Shown here: piece by piece, positions 11,786 to 51,796 of the stretch
Position numbering within the stretch: the stretch's first letter is position 1
Layout: the number at the start of each line of letters is the position of its first letter
Position numbers and translations under genes: made by a program
NCBI GenBank assembly: GCA_016935125.1
Contig: JAFGRM010000060.1
Span: 1-55,275, forward strand
DNA length: 55,275 nt
Reading direction: 5' to 3'
Source: Candidatus Woesearchaeota archaeon
GTDB taxonomy: Archaea > Nanobdellota > Nanobdellia > Woesearchaeales > DSVV01
Notes under the pieces: generated by a model
What the model saw: only the letters and a program-made list of their open reading frames with translations
The model's database searches: none
What the model was told of the DNA's origin: nothing

Positions 11786-11786
11786 G

Positions 11787-16757: not shown

Positions 16758-16762
16758 GAAAC

Positions 16763-17671
16763 ATGATTTGGATAGGAAAAATGCCTGCAAAAGACGATGA
16801 AAAAAGGGACAGGAAAGGCTTCTCAGTAGTCATCCCGGTATTCAATGAAGAAGCATCAATAAAAGAGACAGTCGAAAAGCTAAGGAAAGTGCTTGATTCG
16901 ACAGGCAAGGATTATGAGATCATAATAATCAACGATTGCTCGACAGACAGGACTGCAAAGATAATCGAGAGGATAGATGGGATAGAGATAATCACACATA
17001 CCATCAACAAGGGATACGGCTATTCGCTGAAGGATGGGATAAGAAAAGCAAGATATGAGACTATAGTCATGACTGACGGAGATGGAACATACCCCTGCAG
17101 CCCTATCCCTGAGATGCTCGAACTCTCAAAAGGCCATGAGATAGTAAGCGGGATGAGGGTTGGCAAAGGCGCAAAGATCCCTCTGCTCAGAAGGCCTGCA
17201 AAGTTCATCCTGACACAGCTTGCGAACTTCCTTGTAGGGATGAAGATCCCTGACCTGAACTGCGGCCTGAGGGTCATAAAGAAAAGCGATGTAACAAGAT
17301 ACTTCAGGATACTGCCGGACAGGTTCTCTTTTACAACAACTCACCTGCTCTCGTGCATTGCAGACAGCGGCAGGATAAGGTTCGTTAAGATTGAGTATTA
17401 CAAGCGTGCGGGAAAATCCACAATACACCCTGTAAAGGATTTTTTGAGGTTCATAAATATCATCTTCAAAGAGGGCCTGCTGATCAACCCTATAAAATTT
17501 TTCTCGCTAATATCCGGCTTGTTTGTCCTTCTTGCAATACTGGTCTTCATCTACAGCATGGCCTTTCTCGGCGAGATCATGGACATAAGCATAGTTGTAC
17601 TATTTGTCGGGGCTGTGCAGATATTTCTTTTTGGGATGCTTGCTGACCTTATCATAAGGAAGATCAAATAG
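16763..17671 (+). CDS. GT2 glycosyltransferase, polyprenyl-phosphate hexose synthase type (DPM1/GtrB/ArnC/AglD-like)
   Basis: FSVVIPVFNEE, IINDCSTD and MTDGDG (DxD) with two C-terminal TM helices. Confidence 0.7.
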   Translation: MIWIGKMPAKDDEKRDRKGFSVVIPVFNEEASIKETVEKLRKVLDSTGKDYEIIIINDCSTDRTAKIIERIDGIEIITHTINKGYGYSLKDGIRKARYETIVMTDGDGTYPCSPIPEMLELSKGHEIVSGMRVGKGAKIPLLRRPAKFILTQLANFLVGMKIPDLNCGLRVIKKSDVTRYFRILPDRFSFTTTHLLSCIADSGRIRFVKIEYYKRAGKSTIHPVKDFLRFINIIFKEGLLINPIKFFSLISGLFVLLAILVFIYSMAFLGEIMDISIVVLFVGAVQIFLFGMLADLIIRKIK

Positions 17672-19633: not shown

Positions 19634-19791
19634 CTGCAAGGAGAAGTGTCGGGCTATTGTATATAAAGCTTATGAAATTACAAAATTATGAAATTATAAA
19701 ATTTATTGAAAGAACTTTGAAAAAAGAGGCTCTTAATCTGAAATCCGTCCCTTATATTGGTTGTTGTATTATTGGCTCTTTACAATTGGGC

Positions 19792-24423: not shown

Positions 24424-24515
24424 ACAGTGCTTGACCAAACCAAAAGGCAATGTAAATAAGAGCTTATTATTAATAAACTTTTTAAATAGCCTTGTTATAT
24501 TCTGCGTTGATACTC

Positions 24516-25082
24516 ATGAAGGATAATGTATACATACACAAGACTGCTGATGTTTCTAAAGATGCAAGTATCGGAGCAAACACAAAGATATGGAACTGGG
24601 CCCAGATAAGAGAGAATGCATCAATAGGCTCAGACTGCATCATCAGCAAAGGTGTCTATATAGATTTTGGTGTTAAGATTGGAAACAAAGTCAAGATACA
24701 GAACAATGTATCTGTATATCATGGCGTCACAATTAAAGATGGGGTTTTCATAGGACCTCATGTCTGCTTCACAAACGACAAGAACCCAAGAGCAATAACC
24801 CATAATGGAACACTGAAATCAGACAAAGATTGGGAATTATACAAGACAACAGTCAAGAAAGGGGTATCGATAGGTGCTAATGCAACAATACTTCCTGGGA
24901 TAGATATTGGTGAATATGCCATGATTGGATCAGGGACTGTAGTGACAAAAAGTGTCCCAGATTACAGTTTGGTCATAGGAAATCCAGGAAAAATCGTAGG
25001 ATATGTATGTAAATGTGGAAAAAAGTTTGACAATTCTGATGAATGTAGAGAATGTAAAATAAAACTCAATGAGATAAAATGA
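24516..25082 (+). CDS. UDP-2-acetamido-3-amino-2,3-dideoxy-glucuronate N-acetyltransferase (WbpD/WlbB-like, left-handed beta-helix) with C-terminal Cys4 ribbon
   Basis: Hexapeptide repeats ([29 protein letters not shown]...) and CKCGKKF..CRECK. 24492 is TTG; the ATG at 24516 lies 28-38 nt from CTTTTTAAATAG. Confidence 0.7.
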
Positions 25083-26173
25083 TCCCAATAGCAAAACCAT
25101 TAATCGGCGAAACTGAAACGCAGTATGTTATGGAGGTTCTAAAATCTGGTATTCTTGCACAAGGACCTAAAGTAAAGGAGCTTGAGGAAAGGTTTGCACA
25201 GCTTTGCAAAACAAAACATGCGGTTGCAGTAAACTCAGGTACTGCCGCAATCCATGCTGCCCTTTATGCAGCAGGGGTTAGGAGAGGTGATGAAGTGATT
25301 ACAACCCCATTCACCTTTGTCGCAACTGCAAACCCTATAATCATGCAGGGTGCAAAGCCTGTGTTTGTGGATATAAAAGAGGATACTTTCAACATAGATC
25401 CTGAATCTGTTATCGAAAAGATCACCCCAAAAACAAAGGCAATCATCCCAGTTGACCTTTTCGGACAGATTTATGATTATAAAGCGATATCAGAGATTGC
25501 TGAAGACAAGAAAATAAAAGTAGTTGAAGATGCGTGTCAGGCAGTAAACGCCCAGATTGATGGGAAGATGGCTGGCTCGCTTGGTGACCTTGCCTGCTTC
25601 TCATTTTATGCAACAAAGAATATCATCAGCGGAGAAGGTGGAATAATAACCACAGACAACAGGGATTATGCTGAGCTTGCGAGGCGCTTCAGACATCATG
25701 GGCAGTCAGAACAGACAAGGTATGAATATTTTGATCTTGGATATAATTATAGGATGATGGACCTGCAGGCTGCAATAGCACTAGCTCAGCTTGAAAAAGT
25801 GGACGCATTTACAGACAGAAGGATTGAGAATGCACGATTACTAACAAAAGGTCTAAAGGATATCAAAGGGATAGGTGTGCCATATATAAAACCCGGGACG
25901 AAGCATGTTTTTCATCAATACACTATCAAGGTTGATGGGTTTAGACTAAACAGAAACAAGCTAATAGAACACTTAAATAAGAATGATATTGGATGTGGAA
26001 TCTACTACCCAAAACCACTTCATCTCCACCCTTTTTTTATGAAGGCAGGCTATAAGAAAGGCGATTTACCGGTTTCGGAATCTGCCTCAGAAAAAGTTTT
26101 ATCACTGCCTGTCCACCCAAGTGTTTCCAAAGATGATATCAAAAAAATAGTGGAGGTTATCAAATATGCTTAA
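25079..26173 (+). CDS. DegT/DnrJ/EryC1-type PLP aminotransferase (WbpE-like)
   Basis: [21 protein letters not shown] (PLP Lys) and LSLPVHP. ATGA overlap with the upstream gene. Confidence 0.8.
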
Positions 26174-27152
26174 TGCAGCAGTAATCGGAGTTGGTCTGAT
26201 GGGCAAGAACCATGCAAGAGTTTACTTTGGTCTTGACAACGTCAACCTTGTGGCAATCGCAGACCCTGATAAAAACAAGCTTGGTAAGTTGTCTAAGGAC
26301 TATAGATGCAAGGCTTACACAGACTACAAAAAGATGCTCTCAGAAGAAAAGATAGATATTGTGTCGATAGCTGTTCCGACAATAAACCATTTTGAAGTGT
26401 CCTGCAATACGTTAGATAAAGGTATCAATGTTCTTCTGGAAAAACCAATTGCAGTTTCCACAGCAGAAGGCAAGAACATTATCAGCCTCGCCAAAAAGAA
26501 AAACCTAAAGCTGATGGTAGGTCATATTGAAAGGTTCAATCCTGCAGTAATCGAACTCAAAAAAAGAATAAACAATAATGAACTAGGAAGGGTGTATAAG
26601 ATAGATGTCAACCGCATTGGCCCATATCCTGGGAGGATAAGGGATGTAGGTGTTGTAATAGATCTTGCTGTCCATGACATTGACATCATAAGGTACATAA
26701 CAGGTTCGGAGGTTAAGCGTCTTTATGCTGAAACTGAAAAGAAAATAAACTCAAAATATGAAGATATGCTCAGTGGCCTGTTAAGGTTTGAAAATGGAAT
26801 AATATGTAACATGAATATCAACTGGCTTACTCCTACAAAGATAAGGAAGCTTTACATAACTGGTGAGAGAGGGATGTTCGTCGTAAATTACCTAAAGCAG
26901 GAGTTGATATTCTATGAGAATGCCGAAGTCACAAACAATCTTGATTATGCAGATATCATGAGAGGTGTAAGTGAAGGCAGGATGATAAAGTTTGCAATCA
27001 ATAAGAAAGAGCCTTTGCTCGCAGAGATTGAGCATTTTGTCAATTGTATTAACGAAAACAAAGAGCCATTGATAAGTGGAGAGGATGGTCTGACTGCGAT
27101 TAAAATTGCTGATATGCTGCTTAAGTCTTCTTCAGAAAGGAGGGCAATATGA
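26166..27152 (+). CDS. Gfo/Idh/MocA oxidoreductase (WbpB-like UDP-GlcNAcA 3-dehydrogenase)
   Basis: AAVIGVGLMGKNHA, VLLEKPIA and MVGHIERFNP. 8-nt overlap upstream. Confidence 0.7.
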   Translation: MLNAAVIGVGLMGKNHARVYFGLDNVNLVAIADPDKNKLGKLSKDYRCKAYTDYKKMLSEEKIDIVSIAVPTINHFEVSCNTLDKGINVLLEKPIAVSTAEGKNIISLAKKKNLKLMVGHIERFNPAVIELKKRINNNELGRVYKIDVNRIGPYPGRIRDVGVVIDLAVHDIDIIRYITGSEVKRLYAETEKKINSKYEDMLSGLLRFENGIICNMNINWLTPTKIRKLYITGERGMFVVNYLKQELIFYENAEVTNNLDYADIMRGVSEGRMIKFAINKKEPLLAEIEHFVNCINENKEPLISGEDGLTAIKIADMLLKSSSERRAI

Positions 27153-28342
27153 GAGTCTGTGTGGTGGGATTAGGGAAAGCAGGGCTGCCTCTTGCCGCAG
27201 TGATTGCAGACAGCGGAATAGAGGTCATAGGGGTTGATATATCACAGAACAGGGTTGATGAGATAAACAATGGCATTAACCCTTTGCCAGAAGAGCCAGG
27301 TCTTAGCGAACTAATCAAAAAACATGGCGGCAAAGGGCTAAAGGCGACAAGCGATTACTCAACATGCCCAGGAAAACCTGGAGAGATTACAACATTTATA
27401 ATTATCGTTCCGTTGTTCATAGACTATAACAAGAAACCAGATTTCTCGATACTTAAAAAGGCATTTGAGAGTGTTTCCAAGGTCATAAACGATGGAGACA
27501 TCGTGGTCTTAGAAACAACTGTGCCGCCTGGAACGACCGAAAAGATCCTTAAGCCGGTACTCGACAACTCAAACAAGAAATATCACCTTGCTTATTCGCC
27601 TGAAAGAATCATGACAGGATATTCAATATCAAGATACAAAGAATTTCCTAAAGTAATCGGCGGCTTTGACAAAAAGAGTGGGGAAAAAGCTAAAGAGCTT
27701 TATTCAATGTTCTGCAAGAACGTACAGCTTGTATCAAACATAAGAACTGCAGAGATGATAAAGGTCTGTGAAGGCGTCTACAGAGATGTAAACATTGCTC
27801 TTGCAAATGAGCTTTTCAAGGTTTGCGAAAGCAAAGGGCTTGATTATTATGAGATAAGACATTATGCAAACCATGAGTATTGCAATCTGCACCTCCCTGG
27901 AAACGTAGGCGGACACTGCATCCCAGTCTATCCTTGGTTTATGATAAATGAATTCAATGTCCCTCTGATAAAGCTTGCAAGAGAGATTAATGATTCGATG
28001 ATTGACTATTATATTGCTAAGATTATAAAGATTGCAGGAAACAAGAAAAATGTAGGAATCATCGGCCTGAGTTACAGAGAAGGTGTCAAGGAAAAGGCAT
28101 ATAGCATGTCCATTACACTCATAAAGAAGCTGAAGGAAAAAGGATTCAATGTTTTCGGTTTGGATCCAATGTATAACAGAACTGAGGTCTACAACGAGTT
28201 CGGCATAGATATTATTAAAGACATAGCTAACATGGACGCAATCATCCTCATGAATAATGAATCTGCATTCAGAGATGATTTGCTAAAAATCAAGGATAAA
28301 GTTGTCGATGTCAAAAACACACTCAGGAAATTGTTAGGTTGA
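27149..28342 (+). CDS. UDP-N-acetyl-hexosamine 6-dehydrogenase (WbpA/WecC-like)
   Basis: MRVCVVGLGKAGLPLA and catalytic GGHCIPVYP. SD AAAGGAGGG lies 5 nt upstream. ATGA overlap with the upstream gene. Confidence 0.75.
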   Translation: MRVCVVGLGKAGLPLAAVIADSGIEVIGVDISQNRVDEINNGINPLPEEPGLSELIKKHGGKGLKATSDYSTCPGKPGEITTFIIIVPLFIDYNKKPDFSILKKAFESVSKVINDGDIVVLETTVPPGTTEKILKPVLDNSNKKYHLAYSPERIMTGYSISRYKEFPKVIGGFDKKSGEKAKELYSMFCKNVQLVSNIRTAEMIKVCEGVYRDVNIALANELFKVCESKGLDYYEIRHYANHEYCNLHLPGNVGGHCIPVYPWFMINEFNVPLIKLAREINDSMIDYYIAKIIKIAGNKKNVGIIGLSYREGVKEKAYSMSITLIKKLKEKGFNVFGLDPMYNRTEVYNEFGIDIIKDIANMDAIILMNNESAFRDDLLKIKDKVVDVKNTLRKLLG

Positions 28343-28354
28343 TAATAGAACAAG

Positions 28355-29320
28355 GTGGTGGTAAAAATAAAGAGCAAAGGAAAGGGGTTGTGCCTTGTCA
28401 CAGGCGGTTCAGGTTTTGTTGGTTATCACATAGTTAGGAGGCTTCTTGACGAGGGATATTCTGTTAGGGTCATAGACAATCTGTCGAGAAACTGCAATAA
28501 TATCTTGGATTTAGAAAAAGAAGGCAAGGTCGAGTTCATCCATGGTGATATAAGGTATGATGATACCGTAAGAAAGGTAATGAAAGATGTCGACTATATT
28601 TTTCATGAAGCTGCAATATGCATAAACAGGAGCAAGGAATTTCCAAAGGAAGCTATCGATGTGAACCTTGTTGGTTCATTCAACATATTTCAGGCAGCGA
28701 TTGACTTTGGCGTCAAAAAGGTAGTGTTTGCATCAACATCAAGCGTCTACGGACAACCTGAATACCTACCTGTTGACGAGAAGCACCCTCTTAACCCACA
28801 AACACCATATGAATCAGCAAAACTATGTGCAGAACACATGCTCAAATTTCTCGCAAAAAAACACAACATAAAATACAATATCTTAAGATATTTTAATGTA
28901 TACGGCAAAAAGCAGAGCACAGATGCATATTATACATCAGTGATAAATACTTTTATCAAAAGAGTGCTTGCTGGTGAGCCCCCAGTCATCAACGGTAAAG
29001 GGGATCAATCGATGGATTTCACTCATGTTAGTGATGTTGTTGAAGTAAATATGCGTGCTCTTGAAAGTGACATATCTGGAGAAGTCTTCAATGTAGCAAA
29101 GGGAGAGGAGACTACAATTGCAGAAGTGGCAAACATCATATTAAAGCACTGCAATTCAAAACTCAAACCAACATTTATTGAAAGAGAGGTTCTCGTGACA
29201 AGGAGGAGGGCTGATACATCAAAAATCAAGAAGATGCTCAATTACGAACCGAAAGTCAGCTTCACAGAAGGCATAAAAGAGGTCATAAAAGACATAAAAG
29301 AAAATCCACAGGATTACTGA
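28355..29320 (+). CDS. NAD-dependent nucleotide-sugar epimerase/dehydratase (extended SDR)
   Basis: VTGGSGFVGYH, STSSVYG, YESAKLCAE (YxxxK) and RYFNVYG. GTG start, so the exact start is uncertain. Substrate unknown. Confidence 0.7.
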   Translation: MVVKIKSKGKGLCLVTGGSGFVGYHIVRRLLDEGYSVRVIDNLSRNCNNILDLEKEGKVEFIHGDIRYDDTVRKVMKDVDYIFHEAAICINRSKEFPKEAIDVNLVGSFNIFQAAIDFGVKKVVFASTSSVYGQPEYLPVDEKHPLNPQTPYESAKLCAEHMLKFLAKKHNIKYNILRYFNVYGKKQSTDAYYTSVINTFIKRVLAGEPPVINGKGDQSMDFTHVSDVVEVNMRALESDISGEVFNVAKGEETTIAEVANIILKHCNSKLKPTFIEREVLVTRRRADTSKIKKMLNYEPKVSFTEGIKEVIKDIKENPQDY

Positions 29321-31228: not shown

Positions 31229-32629
31229 TCAGATAAATGCAGTGATATACTTCAGCCCTGCTTTGACTGTATCAACTAGGCCCATTCGCCTTAACTGGTG
31301 CATGATAGGTTTTGGCCGAAAATAAAAACTCCTGTGCGCTTTTTTCTGAAGCCTGACAAGATCATCTGGTTTTAGGCCATCAAGTTCAATCACTGCATTA
31401 CCCCATCTTCTGTATTTTCTCCAGTCCTTGACAACAAGCCTGAGACCCTGACCCTTCAAAGCCATATCATAAAGCTCTGTTCCTGGATAGGGGGTCATAA
31501 TGTTGAAATATGCTTCATCAAGATCTATTCTTTTTGCAAAATTGATTGATTGTCTTATTGTTTTCAGTGTGTCATAAGGATTTCCTATGATAAATGAGCC
31601 ACGGGTTTCAAAGCCCACCTTTTTTGCCATACGAAAACCATCTTCATATTGTTTTAGGGTTGCATCCTTTTTGAGGATGTTGAGTATCTTTTGGCTTCCT
31701 GATTCAACACCCATGGTAATCCTATCGCACCCTGCCTTTTTCATCCACCTGAACATTTCAAGGTCACAAATATTGGCCCTTGTGCTTGCAAACCATGTTA
31801 TATCAATCTTCTCTTTTACTATACGCTTGCATATCTCAATAACCCTATCCTTCTTTAAGGTAAAGGTTTCATCCAGCATTATGAAAAACTTTATCCCATA
31901 ATCATCTGTAATCAATTTCAATTCTTCCAAGACAGAATCAGGGCTTCTGAAGCGAACAGTCCGTCCAAACAATTTGCCACAAAAGACACACCTATATGGA
32001 CAGCCGCGTGTAGTGAGCATAGTCCCGCCAGGTATGATGCCTCTGTCCTTTACAGGCCACAAGTAATCCTTGTATTTTATCAGGTGCCATGCAGGAAAAG
32101 GTATGGAATCCAGATCATCTATCAATCTTGCAGGGCGATTGTGAATAATCCTGCCTTTCTCTTTATAGCTGATTCCACCTACCTTCTTCAGGCTTTTATT
32201 CTTCACAAAGGCATTGATAAGATTTGGGAACTCAAGCTCACCTTCTCCTTTGAAGATGGCATCAACACTATTGTACCTTATAGCATCATCAGGAAGCAAT
32301 GTAGGGTGCGGACCGCCCATTACTGTCTTTATGTCTGGCCTCACTCTCTTAATAAAATCAAGCAATTGCACATTTTCCTGGATCTCTGGAGTGGTAGTTG
32401 TCACACCCGCCACTTTTGCATCAGTTCTTTCAAGAATCTTCCTAAGCTGATGATGTGTCTTGTTTTCCAGTTGCAAGTCGACAATCTTTGGCCTAAAGCC
32501 CGCACGCTCCAGCCCTGATGCAACATACATCAAGCTAGTCGGAGGTATAAGAGTCTGTACCTTAGCACTGGTCTTAAATGAGGTATATATTCCCTCATAG
32601 TTAGGCCTAAAAAGCAGGACATCGGTCAT
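31229..32629 (-). CDS. B12-binding-domain radical SAM enzyme (class B)
   Basis: RGCPYRCVFCG is the CxxxCxxC motif. The N-terminal domain is Rossmann-like (IPPTSLMYVASGLERAGFRPKIVDLQ). 32638 is TTG; the only ATG, at 32629, lies 23 nt from TTTATAAA. Confidence 0.8.
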   Translation of the reverse strand: MTDVLLFRPNYEGIYTSFKTSAKVQTLIPPTSLMYVASGLERAGFRPKIVDLQLENKTHHQLRKILERTDAKVAGVTTTTPEIQENVQLLDFIKRVRPDIKTVMGGPHPTLLPDDAIRYNSVDAIFKGEGELEFPNLINAFVKNKSLKKVGGISYKEKGRIIHNRPARLIDDLDSIPFPAWHLIKYKDYLWPVKDRGIIPGGTMLTTRGCPYRCVFCGKLFGRTVRFRSPDSVLEELKLITDDYGIKFFIMLDETFTLKKDRVIEICKRIVKEKIDITWFASTRANICDLEMFRWMKKAGCDRITMGVESGSQKILNILKKDATLKQYEDGFRMAKKVGFETRGSFIIGNPYDTLKTIRQSINFAKRIDLDEAYFNIMTPYPGTELYDMALKGQGLRLVVKDWRKYRRWGNAVIELDGLKPDDLVRLQKKAHRSFYFRPKPIMHQLRRMGLVDTVKAGLKYITAFI

Positions 32630-32651
32630 TAAGATCAAGATTCAAGTTTGA

Positions 32652-32801: not shown

Positions 32802-33998
32802 TTATGTTTTTTTATTTTTTTTAAGAACATGACTGTAAACGTTTTCAAACTGTCTGTATGTGTTTTCCCATGTAAAGTGGTTTCTTATCAGTTTTGCAGC
32901 AGAACCCCCTATCTTTTTGCTTAATTTCTTATCAGCAAGCAGCTTTACCAGTGCAGCTGAGATATCATCAACATTCCCTGGTCTAACAAGAATTATGTTC
33001 CCCCAATTCTTCAGCACACCTTTCCCCAAAAAATCCTTATCCACATTCGCAAGTATTGGCTTTCCTAGAGCCATCGCTTCTGTTGCAGCTTTACCTAAGC
33101 CTAACTGAAGGGTGAGGCCATGGGCCTCTACATCTGATGCCAAGAGCAGCCGCAATGCTTCATCTCTTGGAAGTGCGCCTGTAAAAGACACATTCTTCTC
33201 CAGGCTAAGTTCTTTTACGAGCCTAACCGATTTCTGAGTGTACACATCACCAACTATAAGAAGCTTTACATCTGGAAACTTCTTAATCACATATGGCATG
33301 GATCTTATTATCTCAACCCTGTCACGTAGGTTATGGACATGACCTAAAGAGACTATAAGTTCTTTCTTGACCATGTATTTCTCTTTAGTATGTTGAATTG
33401 TTCTCTTATCTACCTTCACTGCCTTAAGGTCCATAGGATGTATGATAAGTGGAGCAAACATGGGATCAATACCATATGTATCTCTGATATAATTGATGCT
33501 ATAGGTATCGCCGGCAGGCACCACACATCTCTTTACGAACTGCTTTATGACAAGCTTGTCGAATAATGTCACAAAAAAGTTATAGAACCTGTTTGTATGA
33601 TAGATATATGTATGTATTACCAGGACAAGTGGAAGATGCATGATTTTTGCCATGATTACCGCACTTGCAAGCAGATCAAATATCTGCCCGTGTACCTGCA
33701 GGATTTCACAACGATGCCTCTTGATAATCTTATAGATCCTGTATAAATTTACCGGGCTAAAAGTATAAGTGAAATACTGAAAATTATGTAATATCTCAAA
33801 CCTTGGTATTCTTAGACAGGGCAGCCTGTAGACCTTGATGCCATCTATTACCTCTTCACTCCTTTGACCCTTGAACTTTGAGGTTACTACAACTACTTCA
33901 TGGCCTTTTCTCTTAAGCCTCTTTGCAAGCTTGGAAACAAAATAAGTTGATCCTGAACGTATGGGCGTGTAAATGTTGTTGAATAAGCAGATTCTCAT
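32802..33998 (-). CDS. GT4-family (GT-B) glycosyltransferase
   Basis: The N-terminus MRICLFNNIYTPIRSGSTYFVSKLAKRLKRKGHEV and the C-terminal EAHGLTLQLGLGKAATEAMALGKPILA (an E-x7-E-like region) fit Glycos_transf_1. Confidence 0.75.
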   Translation of the reverse strand: MRICLFNNIYTPIRSGSTYFVSKLAKRLKRKGHEVVVVTSKFKGQRSEEVIDGIKVYRLPCLRIPRFEILHNFQYFTYTFSPVNLYRIYKIIKRHRCEILQVHGQIFDLLASAVIMAKIMHLPLVLVIHTYIYHTNRFYNFFVTLFDKLVIKQFVKRCVVPAGDTYSINYIRDTYGIDPMFAPLIIHPMDLKAVKVDKRTIQHTKEKYMVKKELIVSLGHVHNLRDRVEIIRSMPYVIKKFPDVKLLIVGDVYTQKSVRLVKELSLEKNVSFTGALPRDEALRLLLASDVEAHGLTLQLGLGKAATEAMALGKPILANVDKDFLGKGVLKNWGNIILVRPGNVDDISAALVKLLADKKLSKKIGGSAAKLIRNHFTWENTYRQFENVYSHVLKKNKKT

Positions 33999-34253
33999 AT
34001 TTTAAATTTTGTTTTACCCAAGATATTTTAAATATTCTGATTTTATCAATCAGTTAACATGGGAACATATGTAGGTCACAGCATGAAAGTGCCTTGAAAA
34101 TGGTTCAAGTGGCTGAAAGACCCATAAAACGCATAAAAAGCACATAAAAATGGTCAAATAAATAAAAGAGGTACATAAAATATTTAAAGCGAATTTCTTT
34201 TTTAAAACAACAGGCAACAAGAGAAGACAAGAATAAGACAAGAGTTGATAAAG

Positions 34254-36293
34254 ATGTGTGGCATATTCGGGTTAGTAATCAAGAGAGGGGCAAAAGTCAG
34301 AAAATATGCAATAGAAAATATGCTGATAAAGCTGTTTAAGTTATCAGAGTCTAGAGGGAAAGAAGCAGCAGGATTAGCAATAAGGATAGACAATAGGATA
34401 TATGTGTATAAGGTTCCTGTATCTGCGTCAACAATGCTCAGAACGTCACATTATAGGAGAACTATTTCTGAAATAATAAGCAAGTGTTATGGAAGAGATA
34501 CTAAAAAGACCCAGAAGCCGATTGTCATTATAGGACACTCTAGGCTTGTGACAAACGGCGTCCACACCGAAACTAATAACAACCAACCTATCATCAAAGG
34601 GAACTGTGTAGCTGTCCATAATGGCATAATTGTCAATGTCGATAAGCTTTACAGTAGATATAGGGACATTAAAAGAAAGTATAGTGTTGATACTGAAGTC
34701 ATGTTAGACATCCTTCAGAGATGCATGGCTACAAACAGTCAGATAGACAACTGTATAACAGATACTTTCAGGGAAATCGAAGGCTCAGTCTCAACAGGCA
34801 TCCTTTTCTCTAATCTGGACCTGCTCCTGCTTGCGACCAATACTGGCTCGTTATACTCCTGTTATAACAAAGAGGAAGGCATATTCTCATTTGCTTCAGA
34901 GAGATATATAATAGATAGCTTCATAAAGTATAGAACTGCCAGAATATATTTCCATAGTTCAACCCCTTCACAGATCAAACCAAAAAAAGGGTTAGTAATC
35001 AGCTGTGGTTTAAGGTACATAAATGAACTTGATTTCAGCAAAAAGAGCAGGCAGGAAAAGCACGAGCTAGGATTAGAATACATAAAAGGAGAGATTAAGG
35101 ACATCTCACCAAGAAAGGTTTCAAGACAGATAAAAGCTTCACTAGTTGACCCAAATATAAAATCAAGAGAGCACATCTCCCTCTTTGATGTTCCTTCATC
35201 AAAACTCAATATAAAAAGATGCACACGTTGCCTGCTCCCTGAAACCCATCCGGGAATAAGATTCGATGAAAATGGTGTGTGCAATCACTGCAAGAACTAT
35301 AAACCATTCAAAATCAAGGGCAGGGAAGAACTTGAAAAGCTAATCAATAAGTACAAAAGCAGAACAGGAAAACCTGACTGCATTGTTGCCTTTAGTGGAG
35401 GCAGAGACAGCACTTACGGCCTTCATTATATCAAGAAAGAACTTAATTTGAACCCCATCACATTTACATATGATTGGGGCATGGTAACAGACCTAGCAAG
35501 AAGAAATCAAGCAAGGATATGCGGCAAGCTAGGTGTCGAGCATATTCTTGTTTCTGCAAACATATCCAAAAAAAGGGAATACATAAAAAAGAATGTAGAG
35601 GCATGGCTAAAGAGACCTGATCTTGGGATGGTGCCTATCTTCATGGCAGGGGATAAGCAGTTCTTTTATTATGCTCATGAACTAAGAAAACAGACAGGTG
35701 TAAAGCTTGTCATCTTCTGCGCAGGAAGCGAATATGAGATTACACACTTCAAGCAGGGATTCTGCGGTTGCAGCAATTTTGTGGAGAAAACAATGACTGC
35801 CCTATCAATCAAGGACAAGATCAAGATACTGATGTATTATATCAAGCAATACATAACAAACCCTTCATACATCAATTCCTCGCTTCTTGATACACTTTTT
35901 GCATTCTACTCAACATACATACTAAAGGATGATTACATCTATCTTTTCAACTACATCCCATGGGATGAAAAGGAAATTGAAGCGACAATCAAAGATGAGT
36001 ACAACTGGGAGCTTGCAAACGACACAAAAACCTCATGGAGGATAGGTGATGGAACAGCGCCATTCTACAACTATATCTATTATACAGTAGCAGGATTTTC
36101 TGAATTTGATGTTATGAGAAGCAATCAGGTAAGGGCGGGGATACTGACCAGAGAAGAGGCTTTTAAGCTGCTTGATGATGATAACAAGCCACGGCTTGAA
36201 TCACTTCAGTGGTATGCCAACATTATAGGTTTTGACCTAAAAAAGGCCATAAACATAATCAATTCTATACCTAAACTTTATGAGAAGAAATGA
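34254..36293 (+). CDS. fusion protein: class II (Ntn) glutamine amidotransferase domain + PP-loop N-acetyl-sugar amidotransferase (WbuX/WbpG-like)
   Basis: MCGIFG (Cys nucleophile, so the ATG at 34254 is needed rather than the TTG at 34245), GHSRLVTNG, VHNGII.N and SVDTEV. The C-terminal half has CTRCLLPETHPGIRFDENGVCNHC and the AFSGGRDS PP-loop. Confidence 0.75.
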   Translation: MCGIFGLVIKRGAKVRKYAIENMLIKLFKLSESRGKEAAGLAIRIDNRIYVYKVPVSASTMLRTSHYRRTISEIISKCYGRDTKKTQKPIVIIGHSRLVTNGVHTETNNNQPIIKGNCVAVHNGIIVNVDKLYSRYRDIKRKYSVDTEVMLDILQRCMATNSQIDNCITDTFREIEGSVSTGILFSNLDLLLLATNTGSLYSCYNKEEGIFSFASERYIIDSFIKYRTARIYFHSSTPSQIKPKKGLVISCGLRYINELDFSKKSRQEKHELGLEYIKGEIKDISPRKVSRQIKASLVDPNIKSREHISLFDVPSSKLNIKRCTRCLLPETHPGIRFDENGVCNHCKNYKPFKIKGREELEKLINKYKSRTGKPDCIVAFSGGRDSTYGLHYIKKELNLNPITFTYDWGMVTDLARRNQARICGKLGVEHILVSANISKKREYIKKNVEAWLKRPDLGMVPIFMAGDKQFFYYAHELRKQTGVKLVIFCAGSEYEITHFKQGFCGCSNFVEKTMTALSIKDKIKILMYYIKQYITNPSYINSSLLDTLFAFYSTYILKDDYIYLFNYIPWDEKEIEATIKDEYNWELANDTKTSWRIGDGTAPFYNYIYYTVAGFSEFDVMRSNQVRAGILTREEAFKLLDDDNKPRLESLQWYANIIGFDLKKAINIINSIPKLYEKK

Positions 36294-36388: not shown

Positions 36389-37330
36389 TTATTTTTTTAT
36401 AAGATATAACACAGCACCTGGCAGTGCATATATCCACATTGTAACAAGGATAAGCAAAAAAGATAGTGCAACAGCAGACTCTGATGAAACACCAACCAGC
36501 CCTAACAAAAGTATGCACGACGCCTGGATAGTGCCAAAACCGGATATGGAGATAGGGATAAGATTTACCAGTATCATCACAGGGAACACTAATGCTAAGA
36601 AAGCAAATGCAATATCAATTTTCAATGCTTTTGCAAGTATATACACACTGATTACATTAAATAACCAAACAAAGAGTGTAAAAATAAAGCAGATAATATA
36701 TGTCCTTAAGCTGATTTTTCTGACACCTTTATAGAACTCCTTAAATTCAAACTTCAGTTTCTCCTTTAGCCTCTTTGGTATAAATATATTTGCCAGCGGC
36801 CGCAACAACTTCCCCATGTGTCTCTCATTCAGAAATACTATCATACATACTATCACAACTGCAGAAAACAAGAATACTAACCACAGAGGAATCTTTATCA
36901 GGAAAAGGTTTATTAGGATAAGTGAACAGACAGACCCAAGAAATAGTAGAGTAAATGCATCCAGCATCCTGTCGACTATCACAGTTGACAACGTAAAACC
37001 TGCACTCCTGTCTGTCTTCTCCATGAGATATTTTGTCCTGTACAGTTCGCCTAGCTTACCAGGCGTCACAACCCCAAGGGTAATCCCCTTGACAAGGCTC
37101 TTCAGTGATTCCAAATATGAAAAATTAATTCCAAGTGACCTTATTAAAGTATACCAGCGGAGATTCATTATAAATATAATCGATAAAGAGACCACTGTTG
37201 CGAGAACAGCAAGGAGTATATTTGTTGACTTTAATATCACAAGCATCTTGCGCAGGTCTATCTGATAAAGGATATAGACAAATAACAGAATGCCTATTAC
37301 TGGCGTAAGTTTCTTTATTTTCTGCTTCAT
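36389..37330 (-). CDS. MprF-flippase-like (UPF0104 / LPG_synthase_TM) membrane protein, second copy
   Basis: About 8 TM segments and NLIPISISGFGTIQAS near the C-terminus. 37348 is GTG; the first ATG is at 37330. Confidence 0.6.
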   Translation of the reverse strand: MKQKIKKLTPVIGILLFVYILYQIDLRKMLVILKSTNILLAVLATVVSLSIIFIMNLRWYTLIRSLGINFSYLESLKSLVKGITLGVVTPGKLGELYRTKYLMEKTDRSAGFTLSTVIVDRMLDAFTLLFLGSVCSLILINLFLIKIPLWLVFLFSAVVIVCMIVFLNERHMGKLLRPLANIFIPKRLKEKLKFEFKEFYKGVRKISLRTYIICFIFTLFVWLFNVISVYILAKALKIDIAFAFLALVFPVMILVNLIPISISGFGTIQASCILLLGLVGVSSESAVALSFLLILVTMWIYALPGAVLYLIKK

Positions 37331-37530
37331 TTTTGTATATCCCAGCACCCCGCCTGTAAAAGTATTGGTTTTTATATCCCTTCATATCCTATAATGCAAA
37401 AAGTTAATCAGCGCATTATTTATAGAAGTATCTATAAAATTACTATTTATAAAAGTATTGAATTAAAAAGATGCCGATTACACATGAAAAATTCATAATA
37501 TTCTTAAACATCTGAACAACAATATGGAAA

Positions 37531-39078
37531 ATGGAATGTTCAATCAATGGATACAACAAGGTTGACATAGTAATAATGCTGCTGTTCTTGATTGTTCCGT
37601 TTATATTACTGATACCCTATATTAATGTACCGCTGCTTGATGATGGAGTATATTATACAGAGATATCAGAAAAGATCTCTAAGAACTGGCCTGACCTTAC
37701 AGGAAAGGCGACTGATGGCGCAACTATTGTATTTGATCTTCCGCCAATCTTCCCGTTGATGGGAGCGTTTTTCGTAGCATTGTCTGATAATCCTCTGACT
37801 GCTATGAGAATGATGAACGCGATGATGCTCGGCATAACCCTTTTCATGGTCTTCATAATTTCAAGAAGGTTAGGGATAAGCAGGAAGCTATCTATTTGTG
37901 CCCCTCTTCTTATGCTTACAAATCCTTTCTTCTTCCAGTTTACATCAGGGCTTTTTGTGCTTACTGAATCAACATCAATGGTGTTTTTACTTTTGGGTAT
38001 ACATGCATTCTTCTTTGGCAAGCCAAAATACAAACACATCACATCTTCTGTATTTTTTGTCCTTGCTGTTTTCACTAGGTACATGTCCATTTTTATCATT
38101 GCACCATTCCTCCTTTATTATCTGATCAAACTGTTCAAGGAAAAAAAGAAGACAAGAAGCGTTGTTTTCATGCTGATAATAGTGATACCTATAATCTTCT
38201 GGGTAGCCATGGCTGCCATATATGGCTCTCCTGAAGAAAGAAAATATAATATCAACGATGAAAAGATATCCATAAGCAAAATCATAATGGAGTTTCCAAG
38301 AACATTCATGATAAACACAATAATCACCCCTCTTCTGACATTCCTATTCATCAATCTGTTCATTATTCCCAAAATATACCTATCTATACTAAGGGCATTA
38401 AAAAGAACAAAACCTTATAAAAAACTCAACTGGCTCTTTGAGGATAATGTAAAAGACAAGTACTCAATCATCATCTTGCTCGTCATCGCATTATACTCTT
38501 TGTCGACATCACTTGCCATGTTCTTAATAACAACAACAAAAGTTGAATACAGTCTTGTATACATCATATCCAGGACAAGATTCTTTATAGTTGCAATGCC
38601 ACTCATAATAATTCTTGGGATGATATTCATGAGATATGACCTAAGGACAAGAAAGCTTAAGCTGTTTTTTAATGCGGCGCTTGTCACATCTCTGGCACTT
38701 AGCACTATAATATGCATAACTCTTAATTCTGGATATGTTCAGGACAGGTTGGATGGTCTTTCTTATATTGAAAATACGTATGTAAAAAGGAACTACCACA
38801 GGACACAGGCTCTTGAATGGTTTGATAACAAACTCGAGAACAAGAGGGTAGGCATCTTCTTCATGGAACCAGTACAGGGTGACAGCGGTATAAATATCTT
38901 TTCAGAACACTACCTAAAAAAGAACAGTGTCTCAAAGACAGGGTTGGAATATGTCATCACAGATGAGTTTTTCTTGACTGAAAAAGGTGTCATAGAGATG
39001 TGTGGAAACAAAGATTATAGCCTTATCTACAGCACAGAAAGTCCTGCTGCATATGTCTTTAACTGCATAAATGGATGA
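37531..39078 (+). CDS. GT-C fold glycosyltransferase (ArnT/PMT-like), second copy
   Basis: 515 aa, multi-TM. The first loop has LLDDGVYYTEISEKI (DD-x-x-Y). No WWDYG-type OST motif was seen. Confidence 0.55.
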   Translation: MECSINGYNKVDIVIMLLFLIVPFILLIPYINVPLLDDGVYYTEISEKISKNWPDLTGKATDGATIVFDLPPIFPLMGAFFVALSDNPLTAMRMMNAMMLGITLFMVFIISRRLGISRKLSICAPLLMLTNPFFFQFTSGLFVLTESTSMVFLLLGIHAFFFGKPKYKHITSSVFFVLAVFTRYMSIFIIAPFLLYYLIKLFKEKKKTRSVVFMLIIVIPIIFWVAMAAIYGSPEERKYNINDEKISISKIIMEFPRTFMINTIITPLLTFLFINLFIIPKIYLSILRALKRTKPYKKLNWLFEDNVKDKYSIIILLVIALYSLSTSLAMFLITTTKVEYSLVYIISRTRFFIVAMPLIIILGMIFMRYDLRTRKLKLFFNAALVTSLALSTIICITLNSGYVQDRLDGLSYIENTYVKRNYHRTQALEWFDNKLENKRVGIFFMEPVQGDSGINIFSEHYLKKNSVSKTGLEYVITDEFFLTEKGVIEMCGNKDYSLIYSTESPAAYVFNCING

Positions 39079-40691: not shown

Positions 40692-40717
40692 GAAACTTGT
40701 ATTTCATAGGTATAATA

Positions 40718-41437
40718 ATGTACAAAAATATCAGGGTACTGGCAGTTGTGCCTGCAAGAGGAGGAAGCAAGGGCATTCCAAAGAAGAATATAATAGAATT
40801 AAACGGAAAACCACTTATTGCATGGACAATTGAAGCAGGAAAGCAAACAACATATATAGACAGGATGATTGTTTCAACTGACAGCAAAGAGATAGCAGAG
40901 GTCGCAAAAAGGTTTAAAGCAGATGTACCTTTCATCAGGCCGGATTATCTCTCAAGTGATACAGCTAGTTCTGTAGATGTGCTCCTCCATGCTATTGATT
41001 ATCTTGAAGAGAAAGGAGAAATTTATGATTACATAATGCTACTTGAACCAACATCCCCACTGAGAACAACAGAAGATATCGAGAAAAGCATAGAGATGCT
41101 TGAGTCAAACACCGATGCCGAATCTATAGTTGGCGTAGCAAAGGCAGAATCTTCGCACCCATTATTCAGCGTTACTATCACAGACAGCGGTTTCATAAGG
41201 CCGTTTTCAGGAGAAGAGCTTAAGCACATAAGGAGACAGGATATCAAGGATGTATATTTTCTGGAAGGGACCATATATACCTCAAAGATAGATGCCCTGA
41301 GAAAAAGAAAGACATTTTATCATGAAAGGACATTGCCTTACATAGTTGAAAGGTATAAACAGTTTGAAGTGGATGAGGAAACAGATCTTGTATGTATAGA
41401 AGCCCTGATGAGATACAAGAAGGACGTCTACAGATAA
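40718..41437 (+). CDS. CMP-nonulosonate synthetase (acylneuraminate cytidylyltransferase family)
   Basis: LAVVPARGGSKGIPKKN and LLEPTSPLR. 40697 is TTG; ATG at 40718. Confidence 0.8.
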   Translation: MYKNIRVLAVVPARGGSKGIPKKNIIELNGKPLIAWTIEAGKQTTYIDRMIVSTDSKEIAEVAKRFKADVPFIRPDYLSSDTASSVDVLLHAIDYLEEKGEIYDYIMLLEPTSPLRTTEDIEKSIEMLESNTDAESIVGVAKAESSHPLFSVTITDSGFIRPFSGEELKHIRRQDIKDVYFLEGTIYTSKIDALRKRKTFYHERTLPYIVERYKQFEVDEETDLVCIEALMRYKKDVYR

Positions 41438-41497
41438 GAGCATTTATGGAAAAGCAAGAGGTTCTCTAATGCTGACATCAAAGGAAGGATGAAAAGA

Positions 41498-42817: not shown

Positions 42818-42830
42818 CAAGGTGTCCAAT

Positions 42831-43616: not shown

Positions 43617-43626
43617 TACACTTAAA

Positions 43627-45317: not shown

Positions 45318-45318
45318 G

Positions 45319-47210: not shown

Positions 47211-47215
47211 TAAAA

Positions 47216-47626: not shown

Positions 47627-47634
47627 AACACAAG

Positions 47635-48780: not shown

Positions 48781-48786
48781 ACAGCT

Positions 48787-51766: not shown

Positions 51767-51788
51767 AAACAGGCATAAATTCAATATC

Positions 51789-51796
51789 TTTATAAA
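51789..51796 (-). promoter_or_regulatory. TATA box (TTTATAAA) for the 5-FCL gene
   Basis: Exact octamer 23 nt upstream of the ATG at 51766. Confidence 0.5.

Follow-up and report, generated by a model that had tools for sequence, protein, structure and literature searches.

What does a single open reading frame (ORF) of Candidatus Woesearchaeota do when the databases name its product, depending on the source, 'glucosamine 6-phosphate synthetase', 'asparagine synthetase B' or '7-cyano-7-deazaguanine synthase'? The ORF lies in a stretch of 55,275 nucleotides (hereafter the window, i.e., the whole of the DNA analysed), and the original prediction saw in it a class II (Ntn) glutaminase fused to a WbuX/WbpG-type N-acetyl-sugar amidotransferase (NASAT). 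The gene and the parts of its product are the following:

34254..36293, + strand: fusion gene, 679-aa protein (ORF; full-length homologues at 100% coverage; AF2 model)
33999..34253, + strand: A+T-rich intergenic region, common to the fusion gene and a divergent GT4 gene (sequence read)
34254..35003, + strand: class II (Ntn) glutaminase domain of the GlmS type, aa 1-250 (GATase_6/GATase_7, Foldseek, profile search)
34257..34259, + strand: codon of Cys2 (invariant in 30/30 homologues; aligned with Cys1 in the models of GlmS, PurF and AsnB)
34533..34700, + strand: glutamine-binding and oxyanion-hole segment (residue-by-residue alignment to GlmS 1xff; translation)
35004..35198, + strand: inter-domain linker, aa 251-315 (columns about 290-410 of alignment A1)
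35199..36290, + strand: NASAT-type (WbuX/WbpG/AglX-like) PP-loop ATP-pyrophosphatase domain, aa 316-679 (TIGR03573, hhalign, PDB 8wex)
35220..35291, + strand: tetracysteine zinc-ribbon CxxC...GxCxxC, CTRCLLPETHPGIRFDENGVCNHC (translation; invariant in A1)
35394..35411, + strand: PP-loop SGGRDS, aa 381-386, ATP alpha-beta pyrophosphatase signature (translation; invariant in A1)

The single plus-strand ORF has two possible starts, 34245 (TTG) and 34254 (ATG), and ends at 36293 (stop codon 36291-36293). The ATG at 34254 was retained because homologues begin at MCGIFG (aa 1-6); with this start, a cysteine occupies residue 2, which matches the requirement for an Ntn nucleophile. The gene has no same-strand neighbour upstream, and 33999..34253 presumably holds both its promoter and that of the divergent GT4 gene. 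The AF2 model (pLDDT 85.8, pTM 0.87) depicts what would be a rigid two-domain protein, for which Foldseek found no solved structure with the same two-domain arrangement. The linker varies in length and sequence across alignment A1 (30 homologues of about 50% identity), and model confidence within it is low (pLDDT below 50 at residues 290-306). An exhaustive search (E <= 1e-30) recovered 553 clusters at 50% identity, of which the best 150 are nearly all full length; this same single-ORF architecture, also found in at least 561 species genomes, rules out a frameshift or an assembly artefact.

The N-terminal domain is recognized by Pfam above gathering score as both GATase_6 (43.4 bits vs. 27) and GATase_7 (42 bits vs. 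25). In profile-versus-PDB searches, it matched GlmS/GFAT at 2-4e-11 and PurF at 1e-5 to 4e-4, while AsnB yielded no match to the fusion profile, and Foldseek superposed it on the GlmS glutaminase domain (1xff) with a TM of 0.77-0.78 and an rmsd of 3.7-3.8 Å. By sequence profile and by fold, its closest relative is the glutaminase domain of GlmS, rather than that of AsnB. The motifs GHSRLVTNG, VHNGIIVN and SVDTEV all fall inside 34533-34700, where R97, T100, N123-G124 and D146 align with R73, T76, N98-G99 and D123 of GlmS. These residues, along with C2 and R34, are invariant among the 30 homologues of A1, and the equivalents of Cys1, Arg26, Arg73, Thr76, Asn98, Gly99 and Asp123 of GlmS/GFAT are all conserved; Cys2 is predicted to become the N-terminal nucleophile after removal of Met1. 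In contrast, the channel-gating Trp74 of GlmS is replaced by Leu98, and the sugar-isomerase (SIS) half of GlmS is missing from the fusion protein.

The C-terminal domain matches NCBIfam TIGR03573 (WbuX) with E = 8.1e-46 (profile positions 2-333 of 344 vs. aa 321-659), at a score of 157 bits that is below the NCBI curated cutoff of 203.2 bits. With hhalign, it aligns from one end to the other with stand-alone NASATs (probability 100%, E = 5.5e-66, 346 columns), a homology that extends over the C-terminal 360 aa and includes WbpG of P. aeruginosa O5, WbuX of E. coli O145, AglX of M. maripaludis and LpNASAT (8WEX). The latter structure was matched by sequence at 1.3e-11 and 5.8e-16 and by fold with E = 2e-13 and a TM of 0.59-0.60 (Foldseek, normalised to 8wex), the fold match being moderate (rmsd 9.4-9.6 Å over about 400 columns). 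The zinc-ribbon cysteines (C323-x2-C326 ... G341-V-C343-x2-C346) correspond to the motif CXXCXn[GN]XCXXC, which defines the NASAT family and binds Zn in LpNASAT (PMC10607449). Likewise, SGGRDS satisfies the NASAT motif SGGXDS and is common to eight stand-alone NASATs. The four cysteines and SGGRDS are invariant in A1 and are also found in stand-alone NASATs, with which the fusion C-domain has 23 residues in common family-wide, while PP-loop matches to QueC, LarE and TilS are weak and limited to aa 374-451. Altogether, every motif quoted in the original prediction (MCGIFG, GHSRLVTNG, VHNGIIVN, SVDTEV, CTRCLLPETHPGIRFDENGVCNHC and SGGRDS) was retrieved in the translation, and the Pfam/NCBIfam scans that it had called for, together with hhalign and Foldseek, establish a genuine fusion, the scan matches being well outside what chance would give. 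The fusion C-domains nevertheless form a distinct monophyletic clade, a divergent sister group with about 21% identity to stand-alone NASATs. Because the C-domain has its own clade and falls below the TIGR03573 cutoff, its substrate or acceptor group could differ from those of NASATs. Stand-alone paralogues of the fusion-type C-domain, devoid of any glutaminase, are rare (loci L061 and L091).

Apart from the names themselves, it is hardly credible that the protein is an ordinary GlmS, AsnB or QueC, given its domain content. Matches to the AsnB, GlmS and PurF models are confined to the N-terminal roughly 245 aa; those of GlmS and AsnB cover aa 1-245 only, at a tenth of their cutoffs, and neither a SIS nor an Asn_synthase domain follows. 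For AsnB, TIGR01536 matches aa 2-220 only (33 bits vs. a cutoff of 267); for GlmS, NF001484 and TIGR01135 match profile positions 1-219 of about 600 (46-60 bits vs. cutoffs of 381-418); for QueC, the match (19.4 bits, cutoff 22) is a 63-aa PP-loop region, PF06508 covering aa 376-438 only, and TIGR00364 reaches 21.7 against a cutoff of 150.3. Superposed over its full length on AsnB or GlmS, the protein deviates with an rmsd of 15-23 Å, the whole-chain fit to AsnB being poor (22-23 Å, TM 0.21-0.28). The original prediction had named an AsnB-like C-terminal half as the outcome that would undo it; that half matches TIGR03573, and the Pfam scan of the fusion protein returned no match to PF00733 (Asn_synthase).

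If the C-terminal domain is of the NASAT type, where does its ammonia come from? NASATs work with a separate class I HisH-like glutaminase and a HisF-like protein, whereas the fusion carries an Ntn (class II) glutaminase at its N-terminus. The canonical arrangement cited in the original prediction is real: hisH and hisF adjoin the annotated stand-alone NASATs of L089 and L090, and WbpG and HisF2 interact physically, as shown by Co-IP (PMC11445079), the ammonia-supply model being based on gene adjacency and this one Co-IP. As predicted, the window encodes neither HisH nor HisF: a six-frame tblastn search with annotated proteins of both kinds found nothing, and Pfam detected none in 40 other ORFs, among them all those of at least 150 aa between 11.9 and 52.8 kb (three more of this size, 162-728, 2322-3068 and 10998-11552, were covered by tblastn). 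Nor were they found in 85 of 88 fusion loci (1.57 Mb covered). In the other three (L028, L037 and L056), a canonical NASAT-HisH-HisF trio adjoins the fusion, so that such partners do occur beside it elsewhere, as the original prediction had feared, but there they flank a separate stand-alone NASAT. Since both coexist in these loci, the fusion and the canonical trio are not simple substitutes for each other.

We therefore regard the protein as, rather probably, a single-chain, glutamine-dependent N-acetyl-sugar amidotransferase in which the fused Ntn domain replaces HisH/HisF and whose substrate belongs to a cell-surface glycan. Once Met1 is removed, Cys2 would act as the nucleophile of a GlmS-type glutaminase, turning glutamine into glutamate and ammonia, and the ammonia would move inside the protein to the NASAT domain. 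There, the PP-loop would adenylate the acetamido carbonyl oxygen of an amino-sugar precursor (ATP to AMP and PPi), and ammonia would displace AMP to leave a positively charged acetamidino (amidine) group, as proposed for NASATs (PMC10607449). The fused domain would thus do the job of the separate HisH-like and HisF-like proteins that serve WbpG, WbuX and AglX, on a building block of a cell-surface glycan. NASATs and the fusion have in common the tetracysteine Zn motif, the SGGxDS PP-loop, the fold and a location in glycan-biosynthesis loci, and presumably the same ATP-dependent conversion of acetamido into acetamidino groups. To our knowledge, neither any NASAT nor any member of the fusion clade has been assayed in vitro, so we infer amidine formation from homology to distant relatives (about 21% identity) and from their genetics; ammonia channelling and the substrate are likewise proposals. 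The 'different ammonia-channel solution' of the original prediction is a reasonable reading of this architecture.

The AsnB family (AsnB, human ASNS, beta-lactam synthetase and WbpS-type glycan amidotransferases) shares the design of the fusion, i.e., an N-terminal Cys1 Ntn glutaminase followed by an acceptor-adenylating PP-loop ATP-pyrophosphatase, and in AsnB the ammonia travels through an internal tunnel. By the same logic, the PP-loop domain might adenylate a carboxylate (e.g., of a hexuronic acid) and ammonia would then yield a uronamide, as is thought for AsnB-like WbpS-type enzymes. The three NDP-sugar 6-dehydrogenases of the window and the separate, below-cutoff clade of the C-domain would suit such a reaction, which we nonetheless deem very unlikely, as the C-domain of AsnB is an Asn_synthase domain while that of the fusion is an end-to-end homologue of NASATs. 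Moreover, bona fide AsnB paralogues adjoin the fusion in L086, L087 and five other loci, which argues that the fusion has a job other than that of AsnB, and a sugar 6-dehydrogenase is missing near the fusion in most loci (relatives of the Wbp-operon enzyme in only 5 of 82; dehydrogenase cluster C11 in 6 loci in all, window included).

Returning to acetamidino formation as the preferred reading, which sugar would be modified? The genes of the window that bear on this question are:

16763..17671, + strand: DPMS/ArnC/AglJ-like GT2 of cluster C1, its sole member in the window (cluster and NCBIfam)
24492..29320, + strand: Wbp-like operon (Pfam; NCBIfam NF040723 346 bits, TIGR03026 335 bits)
31229..32638, - strand: B12-binding radical SAM enzyme, recurrent family neighbour (Pfam)
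32802..33998, - strand: GT4 glycosyltransferase, divergent neighbour (Pfam)
36389..37348, - strand: LPG_synthase_TM (flippase-like) polytopic membrane protein, convergent neighbour (Pfam 4.6e-46)
37531..39078, + strand: PMT_2 (GT-C, ArnT-like) membrane glycosyltransferase (Pfam)

The Wbp-like operon encodes a hexapeptide acetyltransferase, a DegT aminotransferase, a UDP-GlcNAc 3-dehydrogenase-like protein, an NDP-sugar 6-dehydrogenase and an SDR, and the original prediction took its presumed product, GlcNAc3NAcA, as the 'obvious substrate'. The fusion would then be the equivalent of WbpG/AglX and turn 3-acetamido into 3-acetamidino on UDP-GlcNAc3NAcA or UDP-ManNAc3NAcA, for which the M. maripaludis glycan provides a precedent. 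The 3-dehydrogenase-like, DegT, acetyltransferase and 6-dehydrogenase genes are indeed located 5-10 kb upstream of the fusion; Wbp-type sets lie directly upstream of a GT2-fusion pair in L010 and L031, where there is no canonical NASAT, and another set occurs in L016 (Legionella londiniensis). A further precedent is ManNAc3NAmA in P. aeruginosa O5 (PMC10607449). Yet this substrate is doubtful and anything but obvious: across the family, only about 6 of 82 loci combine the fusion with Wbp-type genes, an epimerase-type SDR and a GT2 are all that most loci have to offer, and, in the window itself, four opposite-strand genes separate the operon from the fusion. In L028, the canonical HisH-HisF-NASAT trio stands between the Wbp genes and the fusion, which has an SDR-GT2-acetyltransferase-flippase module of its own, an order that suggests that the Wbp product is handled there by the canonical enzyme. 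A Wbp-type UDP-diacetamido-uronate is a possible alternative substrate in this window. As for nonulosonic-acid genes, they were never found beside the fusion in 82 loci, whereas they adjoin the stand-alone NASATs of L088-L090.

The context of the fusion is always glycan biosynthesis, and what characterises it, in contrast to that of stand-alone NASATs, is a DPMS/ArnC-like GT2 together with a flippase. No neighbour recurs more often than this GT2 (cluster C1), which is found in 44 of 76 loci; in 14 of 73 loci it directly precedes the fusion on the same strand, spaced by -50 to +88 nt, and in 25 of 73, with Archaea and several bacterial phyla represented, it is at most two genes away. Among solved structures, it comes closest to Dol-P-Man synthase (3.7e-10) and to ArnC. 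NCBIfam matches the cluster to AglJ, PpgS, PgfS and ArnC, and the member in the window to AglJ (111 bits), Dol-P-hexose transferase and ArnC; the GT2 has about two predicted C-terminal TM helices. A flippase, either Polysacc_synt or LPG_synthase_TM, lies within two genes of the fusion in 23 of 73 loci. The LPG_synthase_TM protein of the window has about nine predicted TM segments, and its family recurs near the fusion in L008, L039, L012, L022 and L065. Two PMT_2/GT-C proteins are encoded in the window (37531-39078, with 10 predicted TM segments, and 22585-24423) and others in L001 and L005, while cluster C22 gives a weak PMT_2/GT-C match; enzymes of this class use polyprenyl-phosphate sugars as donors. 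Among the other neighbours, radical SAM relatives occur in 11-13 fusion loci and beside the stand-alone paralogue of L091, and a different GT4 family (cluster C4) is directly downstream of the fusion in seven loci, including Bathyarchaeota and Anaerolineae, none of which holds a close relative of the GT4 of the window.

These neighbours recall the polyprenyl-phosphate modules (ArnC/ArnD/ArnEF/ArnT; CsbB/GtcA/YfhO; PpgS with a GT-C; archaeal AglJ-type), in gene context only: the GT2 that most often accompanies the fusion is of the class found in these modules, and flippase-like proteins and, in some loci, PMT_2/GT-C proteins occur along with it. We know of no amidotransferase in such modules, but ArnD, which modifies Und-P-Ara4FN, offers an analogy. 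One possibility, though a somewhat doubtful one, is that the DPMS/ArnC/CsbB-like GT2 makes a polyprenyl-phosphate-HexNAc, that the fusion forms the amidine on the cytoplasmic face, and that, through the flippase and a GT-C, an envelope polymer or a protein then receives the cationic sugar. The frequency and relatives of the GT2, its TM segments, the adjacent flippases and the PMT_2/GT-C proteins all point in this direction. However, this is guilt by association, GT2s and flippases being common in polysaccharide loci of every kind; Pfam gave no match for the large membrane proteins of clusters C8, C15 and C21; known NASATs are thought to use nucleotide sugars or nonulosonic-acid intermediates; and the C1 GT2 of the window lies 17 kb from the fusion. 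Family-wide, the best-supported candidate substrate of the amidotransferase is a simple HexNAc handled by the DPMS/ArnC-like GT2 and the flippase, whether nucleotide- or polyprenyl-phosphate-linked.

How widespread is the fusion? Full-length relatives exist in Archaea as well as Bacteria, in at least 561 GTDB species, some of them cultured, and the architecture extends over many bacterial phyla and thousands of metagenomic proteins. Examples of carriers that have this enzyme alone are Pseudomonas abietaniphila ATCC 700689, Legionella londiniensis and Solidesulfovibrio carbinolicus. The original prediction had treated a common, already annotated architecture as a weakness: common it is, but in none of the sources examined is it correctly annotated, relatives being labelled "hypothetical", "GlmS", "AsnB" or "QueC", and our literature search found no published description. 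The fusion family is large, widespread, mislabelled or unnamed, and never characterised.

Acetamidino sugars are known from antigens of Pseudomonas, E. coli O145, Legionella and Campylobacter and from archaeal N-glycans. Their synthesis is known mainly from genetics, and, according to the single structural paper, little is known on NASAT function (PMC10607449). With glutaminase and amidotransferase on one polypeptide, the fusion would be a much simpler system for reconstitution, in which the ammonia path could be mapped and the substrate identified. It also shows the NASAT PP-loop scaffold coupled to two unrelated glutaminase folds. NAD synthetase, GMP synthetase and AsnB offer parallel cases. 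Among the carriers of the fusion are DPANN archaea and Patescibacteria, whose reduced genomes we would expect to have no histidine-pathway HisH/HisF to borrow. A bolder and, on the whole, unlikely proposal would make the fusion the founding example of a single-chain Ntn-glutaminase-NASAT family dedicated to envelope decoration across domains, from GT2-made polyprenyl-phosphate HexNAc to a cationic acetamidino sugar placed by flippase and GT-C on surface polymers or proteins; if true, this pathway would be an amidine-based counterpart of the Ara4N or GalN modification of surface charge. In practice, thousands of entries named GlmS, AsnB, QueC or 'hypothetical' are open to re-annotation, and, in Patescibacteria, DPANN, Bathyarchaeota, Planctomycetota and other groups, the family marks out glycan loci that are likely to make cationic amidino sugars.

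The fusion protein is encoded by a single open reading frame on the plus strand (34245/34254–36293), whose start we place at ATG 34254 because its homologues begin at MCGIFG in the alignment, which gives a product of 679 aa with the cysteine as residue 2. All the motifs quoted in the original prediction are found where expected in this frame, and the Pfam and NCBIfam scans bear out the proposed architecture, a class II (Ntn) glutaminase joined to an N-acetyl sugar amidotransferase (NASAT). GATase_6 (43.4 bits) and GATase_7 (42 bits) both match aa 91–218 above their gathering scores, and TIGR03573 (WbuX, N-acetyl sugar amidotransferase) matches aa 321–659 over profile positions 2–333 of 344 (E = 8.1e-46), with a score of 157 bits that lies below the NCBI curated cutoff of 203.2; a QueC-type PP-loop match of Pfam (aa 376–438) is sub-threshold. 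The alternative of an ordinary AsnB-like protein is ruled out, as the scans found no Asn_synthase domain, the GlmS, PurF and AsnB models of NCBIfam are restricted to the first ~245 residues, the N-terminal domain is nearer to GlmS and the global fold matches AsnB poorly.

For the glutaminase half (aa 1–250), a profile built from 30 homologues matched the glutaminase domains of GlmS/GFAT (2–4e-11) and PurF (1e-5 to 4e-4), with no match to AsnB. In the AlphaFold2 model of the fusion (pLDDT 85.8, pTM 0.87), this half can be overlaid on 1xff, the GlmS glutaminase domain in isolation (Foldseek TM 0.77–0.78, rmsd 3.7 Å). Residues R97, T100, N123–G124 and D146 align with R73, T76, N98–G99 and D123 of GlmS, which we take from established GlmS enzymology to be the glutamine-binding and oxyanion-hole residues. 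All of them, and C2 and R34 as well, are invariant in the 30 homologues, even though these share only ~50% identity, and, judging from this invariance, the glutaminase half appears catalytically competent.

As for the C-terminal half (aa 316–679), the nearest solved protein is the Legionella pneumophila NASAT 8WEX, both in sequence (E = 1.3e-11 and 5.8e-16) and in fold (Foldseek TM 0.59–0.60 on the model). Compared with the profile of eight diverse stand-alone NASATs, the C-domain profile aligned end to end over 346 columns (probability 100%, E = 5.5e-66), and 23 positions are common to the fusion clade and the stand-alone enzymes. The two motifs that define the NASAT family, CXXCXn[GN]XCXXC and SGGXDS (PMC10607449), are present in the fusion and invariant among its homologues. 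When the whole chain is considered, the model superposes poorly on AsnB, human ASNS and beta-lactam synthetase (rmsd 22–23 Å, TM 0.21–0.28), and poorly as well on GlmS. Its two-domain arrangement is shared by no solved protein. The high pTM suggests a defined packing of the two domains.

Canonical NASATs are encoded with separate partners, in the order hisF-like, hisH, NASAT on an Azospirillum thermophilum plasmid and NASAT, hisH, hisF on a Rhodobacteraceae plasmid, with adjoining nonulosonic-acid genes in both records, and the co-immunoprecipitation of HisF2 and WbpG supports HisH2/HisF2 as the source of the ammonia (PMC11445079). Using the HisH and HisF proteins of annotated plasmid records as tblastn queries against the window and 88 fusion loci (1.57 Mb), we obtained no match in the window, in agreement with the original prediction, and matches in only three of the 88 loci (L028, L037, L056), so the fusion is normally found without HisH or HisF next to it. 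In these three loci, HisH and HisF lie on the flanks of a separate stand-alone NASAT; therefore, the canonical trio coexists with the fusion and does not serve it.

Glycan loci encoding both the canonical HisH–HisF–NASAT trio and the fusion
L028:7421–11977, trio directly adjacent to the fusion
L037:17727–20265, trio; fusion at 9889–11832
L056:10001–12028 and 15183–17996, trio and fusion

Their presence in the same glycan locus implies that the two systems are not simple substitutes, and they may amidinate different sugars or different positions. In the fusion, ammonia for the NASAT half would instead be supplied by the fused Ntn domain. In the best supported reading, the fusion is a self-contained amidotransferase that acts on glycan precursors and depends on glutamine and ATP; by analogy with its NASAT relatives, its product would most probably be an acetamidino group, the formation of a carboxamide being a minor rival. 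The analysis shows directly which domains are present, that their catalytic residues are conserved, that HisH/HisF are absent and that the surroundings are those of glycan biosynthesis; the reaction, the channelling of ammonia and the substrate are inferred.

The architecture is widespread. A word-indexed protein search returned 7736 proteins at E <= 1e-5, the best 120 of which are all full length (634–741 aa, 96–100% coverage, 47–53% identity), while an exhaustive HMMER search of 1.84 billion representatives returned 553 clusters at 50% identity with E <= 1e-30; among the best 150 of these (E < 1e-125), nearly all are 560–690 aa long and match the whole query or both halves, a few being shorter, C-domain-only proteins. 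At least 561 loci encode a relative in GTDB (one genome per species), and the query is matched over nearly its whole length in the best 80. These 80 loci come from Archaea (Bathyarchaeota, Thermoproteota, Methanoregula) and Bacteria (Patescibacteria, Planctomycetota, Anaerolineae, Verrucomicrobia, Omnitrophota, Myxococcales, Rhodospirillales, Bacteroidota and others), including the cultured strains Legionella londiniensis ATCC 49505, Pseudomonas abietaniphila ATCC 700689, Oceanibacterium hippocampi and Ramlibacter humi. The C-domains of the fusions are monophyletic, with 44–100% identity among themselves and ~21% to stand-alone NASATs, which are themselves ~21% identical to each other; these sequence relationships point to one ancient fusion event.

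According to the original prediction, a common and already annotated architecture would weaken the claim. Common it is, but a correct family name appears in none of the sources looked at (protein databases, RefSeq, UniRef). Members go under ‘hypothetical protein’, ‘glucosamine 6-phosphate synthetase’ or ‘asparagine synthetase B’, and UniRef has ‘Glutamine amidotransferase type-2 domain-containing protein’. Full-length members at L086:9001–10965 (NZ_CP026539.1; WP_129355994.1, named ‘7-cyano-7-deazaguanine synthase’), in L087 (NZ_CP016500.1) and in NZ_CP045856.1 bear the RefSeq labels ‘7-cyano-7-deazaguanine synthase’, ‘hypothetical protein’ and ‘glucosamine 6-phosphate synthetase’. The labels GlmS, AsnB and QueC are wrong for this family, and the last seems to be assigned in error systematically, on account of the weak PP-loop match. 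Genes labelled QueC on Bacillus thuringiensis and B. cereus plasmids match only the NASAT-type half (query aa 320–645, 22% identity). No published description of a glutaminase–NASAT fusion was found in the literature on NASATs, acetamidino sugars, AglXYZ and WbpG, and a 2026 survey of the QueC superfamily features only NASATs of 300–400 aa and some giant multidomain proteins.

Stand-alone proteins of the fusion-type C-domain are rare (L061:17809–18897 and L091:5001–6197; 362 and 398 aa, 41–52% identity). No Ntn glutaminase is encoded within or beside these two genes, and no split-gene form, with a separate glutaminase beside a fusion-type C-domain, was found. These paralogues may be ammonia-dependent forms, or their glutaminase may have been lost secondarily. 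The L091 paralogue is surrounded by peptidase U32-family, GT2 and B12-binding radical SAM genes.

To characterize the genomic context, ORFs were called in 86 loci and clustered, and distances to the fusion were taken from the 73 non-redundant loci in which its ORF was called.

Recurrent neighbours of the fusion
GT2 glycosyltransferase (C1): 44 of 76 loci; at most two genes away in 25 of 73; the next gene upstream, on the same strand, in 14 (spacing of −50 to +88 nt)
Polysacc_synt flippase (C2): 29 loci; at most two genes away in 23 of 73
B12-binding radical SAM protein (C5): at most two genes away in 10
Epimerase-type SDR (C3): at most two genes away in 9
GT4 glycosyltransferase (C4): immediately downstream in 7 loci, Bathyarchaeota and Anaerolineae among them

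The GT2 gene is immediately upstream in Bathyarchaeota, Patescibacteria, Anaerolineae, Planctomycetota, Proteobacteria and Flavobacteriales, and also on a Solidesulfovibrio plasmid. With ~2 C-terminal transmembrane segments, Dol-P-Man synthase and ArnC as nearest solved relatives, and AglJ, PpgS, PgfS and ArnC as best NCBIfam matches, C1 is assigned by sequence to the polyprenyl-phosphate glycosyltransferase class. True AsnB paralogues adjoin the fusion in several loci. The large membrane proteins C8, C15 and C21 have no Pfam match, and their identification as GT-C enzymes was dropped; only C22 has weak PMT matches. B12-binding radical SAM enzymes, for which the best models (BchE, HpnJ) score far below cutoff, recur beside the family (window 31229–32638 (−), L012, L021, L032, L034, L043, L064, L091) and are present in 11–13 loci, with eight paralogues around the GT2–fusion pair of L021 and several around the stand-alone gene of L091. 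In Legionella londiniensis (L016:4057–9618), the context is unlike the usual GT2/flippase one: ATP-grasp enzymes lie on both sides of the fusion, along with a transglutaminase-like protein, and a Wbp-type set is on the opposite strand.

The window is archaeal. Fibrillarin, Nop5, RNase P p30 and an aIF-2B-like protein are among its products, and its Nop5 is nearest to proteins of Nanoarchaeota and Woesearchaeota (DPANN; 51–67% identity). Glycan biosynthesis occupies ~40 kb, with GT2 and GT4 glycosyltransferases and a flippase in addition to the following features.

Glycan-biosynthesis features of the window
11992–13317, NDP-sugar 6-dehydrogenase
15414–16757, NDP-sugar 6-dehydrogenase
16763–17671, DPMS/AglJ-like GT2
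19792–20742 (−) and 22585–24423 (+), LPG_synthase_TM (flippase-like) and PMT_2 (GT-C) pair, near this GT2
24492–29320 (+), Wbp-like operon
27149–28342, NDP-sugar 6-dehydrogenase
36389–37348 (−) and 37531–39078 (+), second LPG_synthase_TM and PMT_2 pair
40697–49809, nonulosonic-acid cluster

The three paralogous 6-dehydrogenases within 17 kb imply several different uronic acids in the surface glycans of the organism, and the two LPG_synthase_TM/PMT_2 pairs suggest two lipid-linked-monosaccharide decoration modules in one locus. Two ORFs have no Pfam match: 9797–10867 (+), 356 aa, and 17792–19639 (−), 615 aa, the latter without predicted transmembrane segment and flanked by the AglJ-like GT2 on one side and an LPG_synthase_TM gene on the other. 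Within 40697–52794, the nonulosonic-acid cluster comprises a CMP-NulO synthetase, a class III aminotransferase, an SDR, NeuB (428 bits), a PIG-L deacetylase, a formyltransferase, NeuC, a DegT aminotransferase and a PseB/LegB-like dehydratase, followed by 5-formyl-THF cyclo-ligase and FolD. By its gene content, this set looks intended for an N-formylated nonulosonic acid, comparable to the 5-N-formyl-legionaminic acid of a haloarchaeon.

To address the substrate, the window's own genes were compared with 82 other fusion loci. A nonulosonic acid, as this cluster (40.7–49.8 kb) and the NulO context of canonical NASATs (L088–L090) might suggest, is not supported, because relatives of NeuB, NeuC and the CMP-synthetase are found in none of the 82. 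The L-FucNAc (FnlABC) pathway, as in E. coli O145, was ruled out for L003, where the two SDRs are not FnlA/FnlB and the epimerase is a plain WecB. The original prediction saw the substrate source in the Wbp-like operon, and a Wbp-derived diacetamido-uronate is possible in the window: in L010 and L031, Wbp genes directly precede the GT2–fusion pair and no other NASAT is encoded there. This is not a family-wide rule, however, as relatives of the Wbp-type 3-dehydrogenase, acetyltransferase and 6-dehydrogenase each occur in only 5–6 of the 82 loci (generic DegT aminotransferases in 11). In L028, Wbp genes are followed by HisH–HisF–NASAT, and then by the fusion with an SDR–GT2–acetyltransferase–flippase module. 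Across the family, the evidence points to a HexNAc processed together with the DPMS/ArnC-like GT2 and the flippase, and possibly modified while on the lipid carrier.

The chemistry and both kinds of domains are already known; what is new is their combination. The fusion amounts to a second, unrelated glutaminase solution for NASATs. Far from being unique to the window, it is easy to find once sought, and represents a large, cross-domain family, unnamed or misnamed, with its own conserved neighbourhood. It offers a tractable single-protein route into a question of enzymology.
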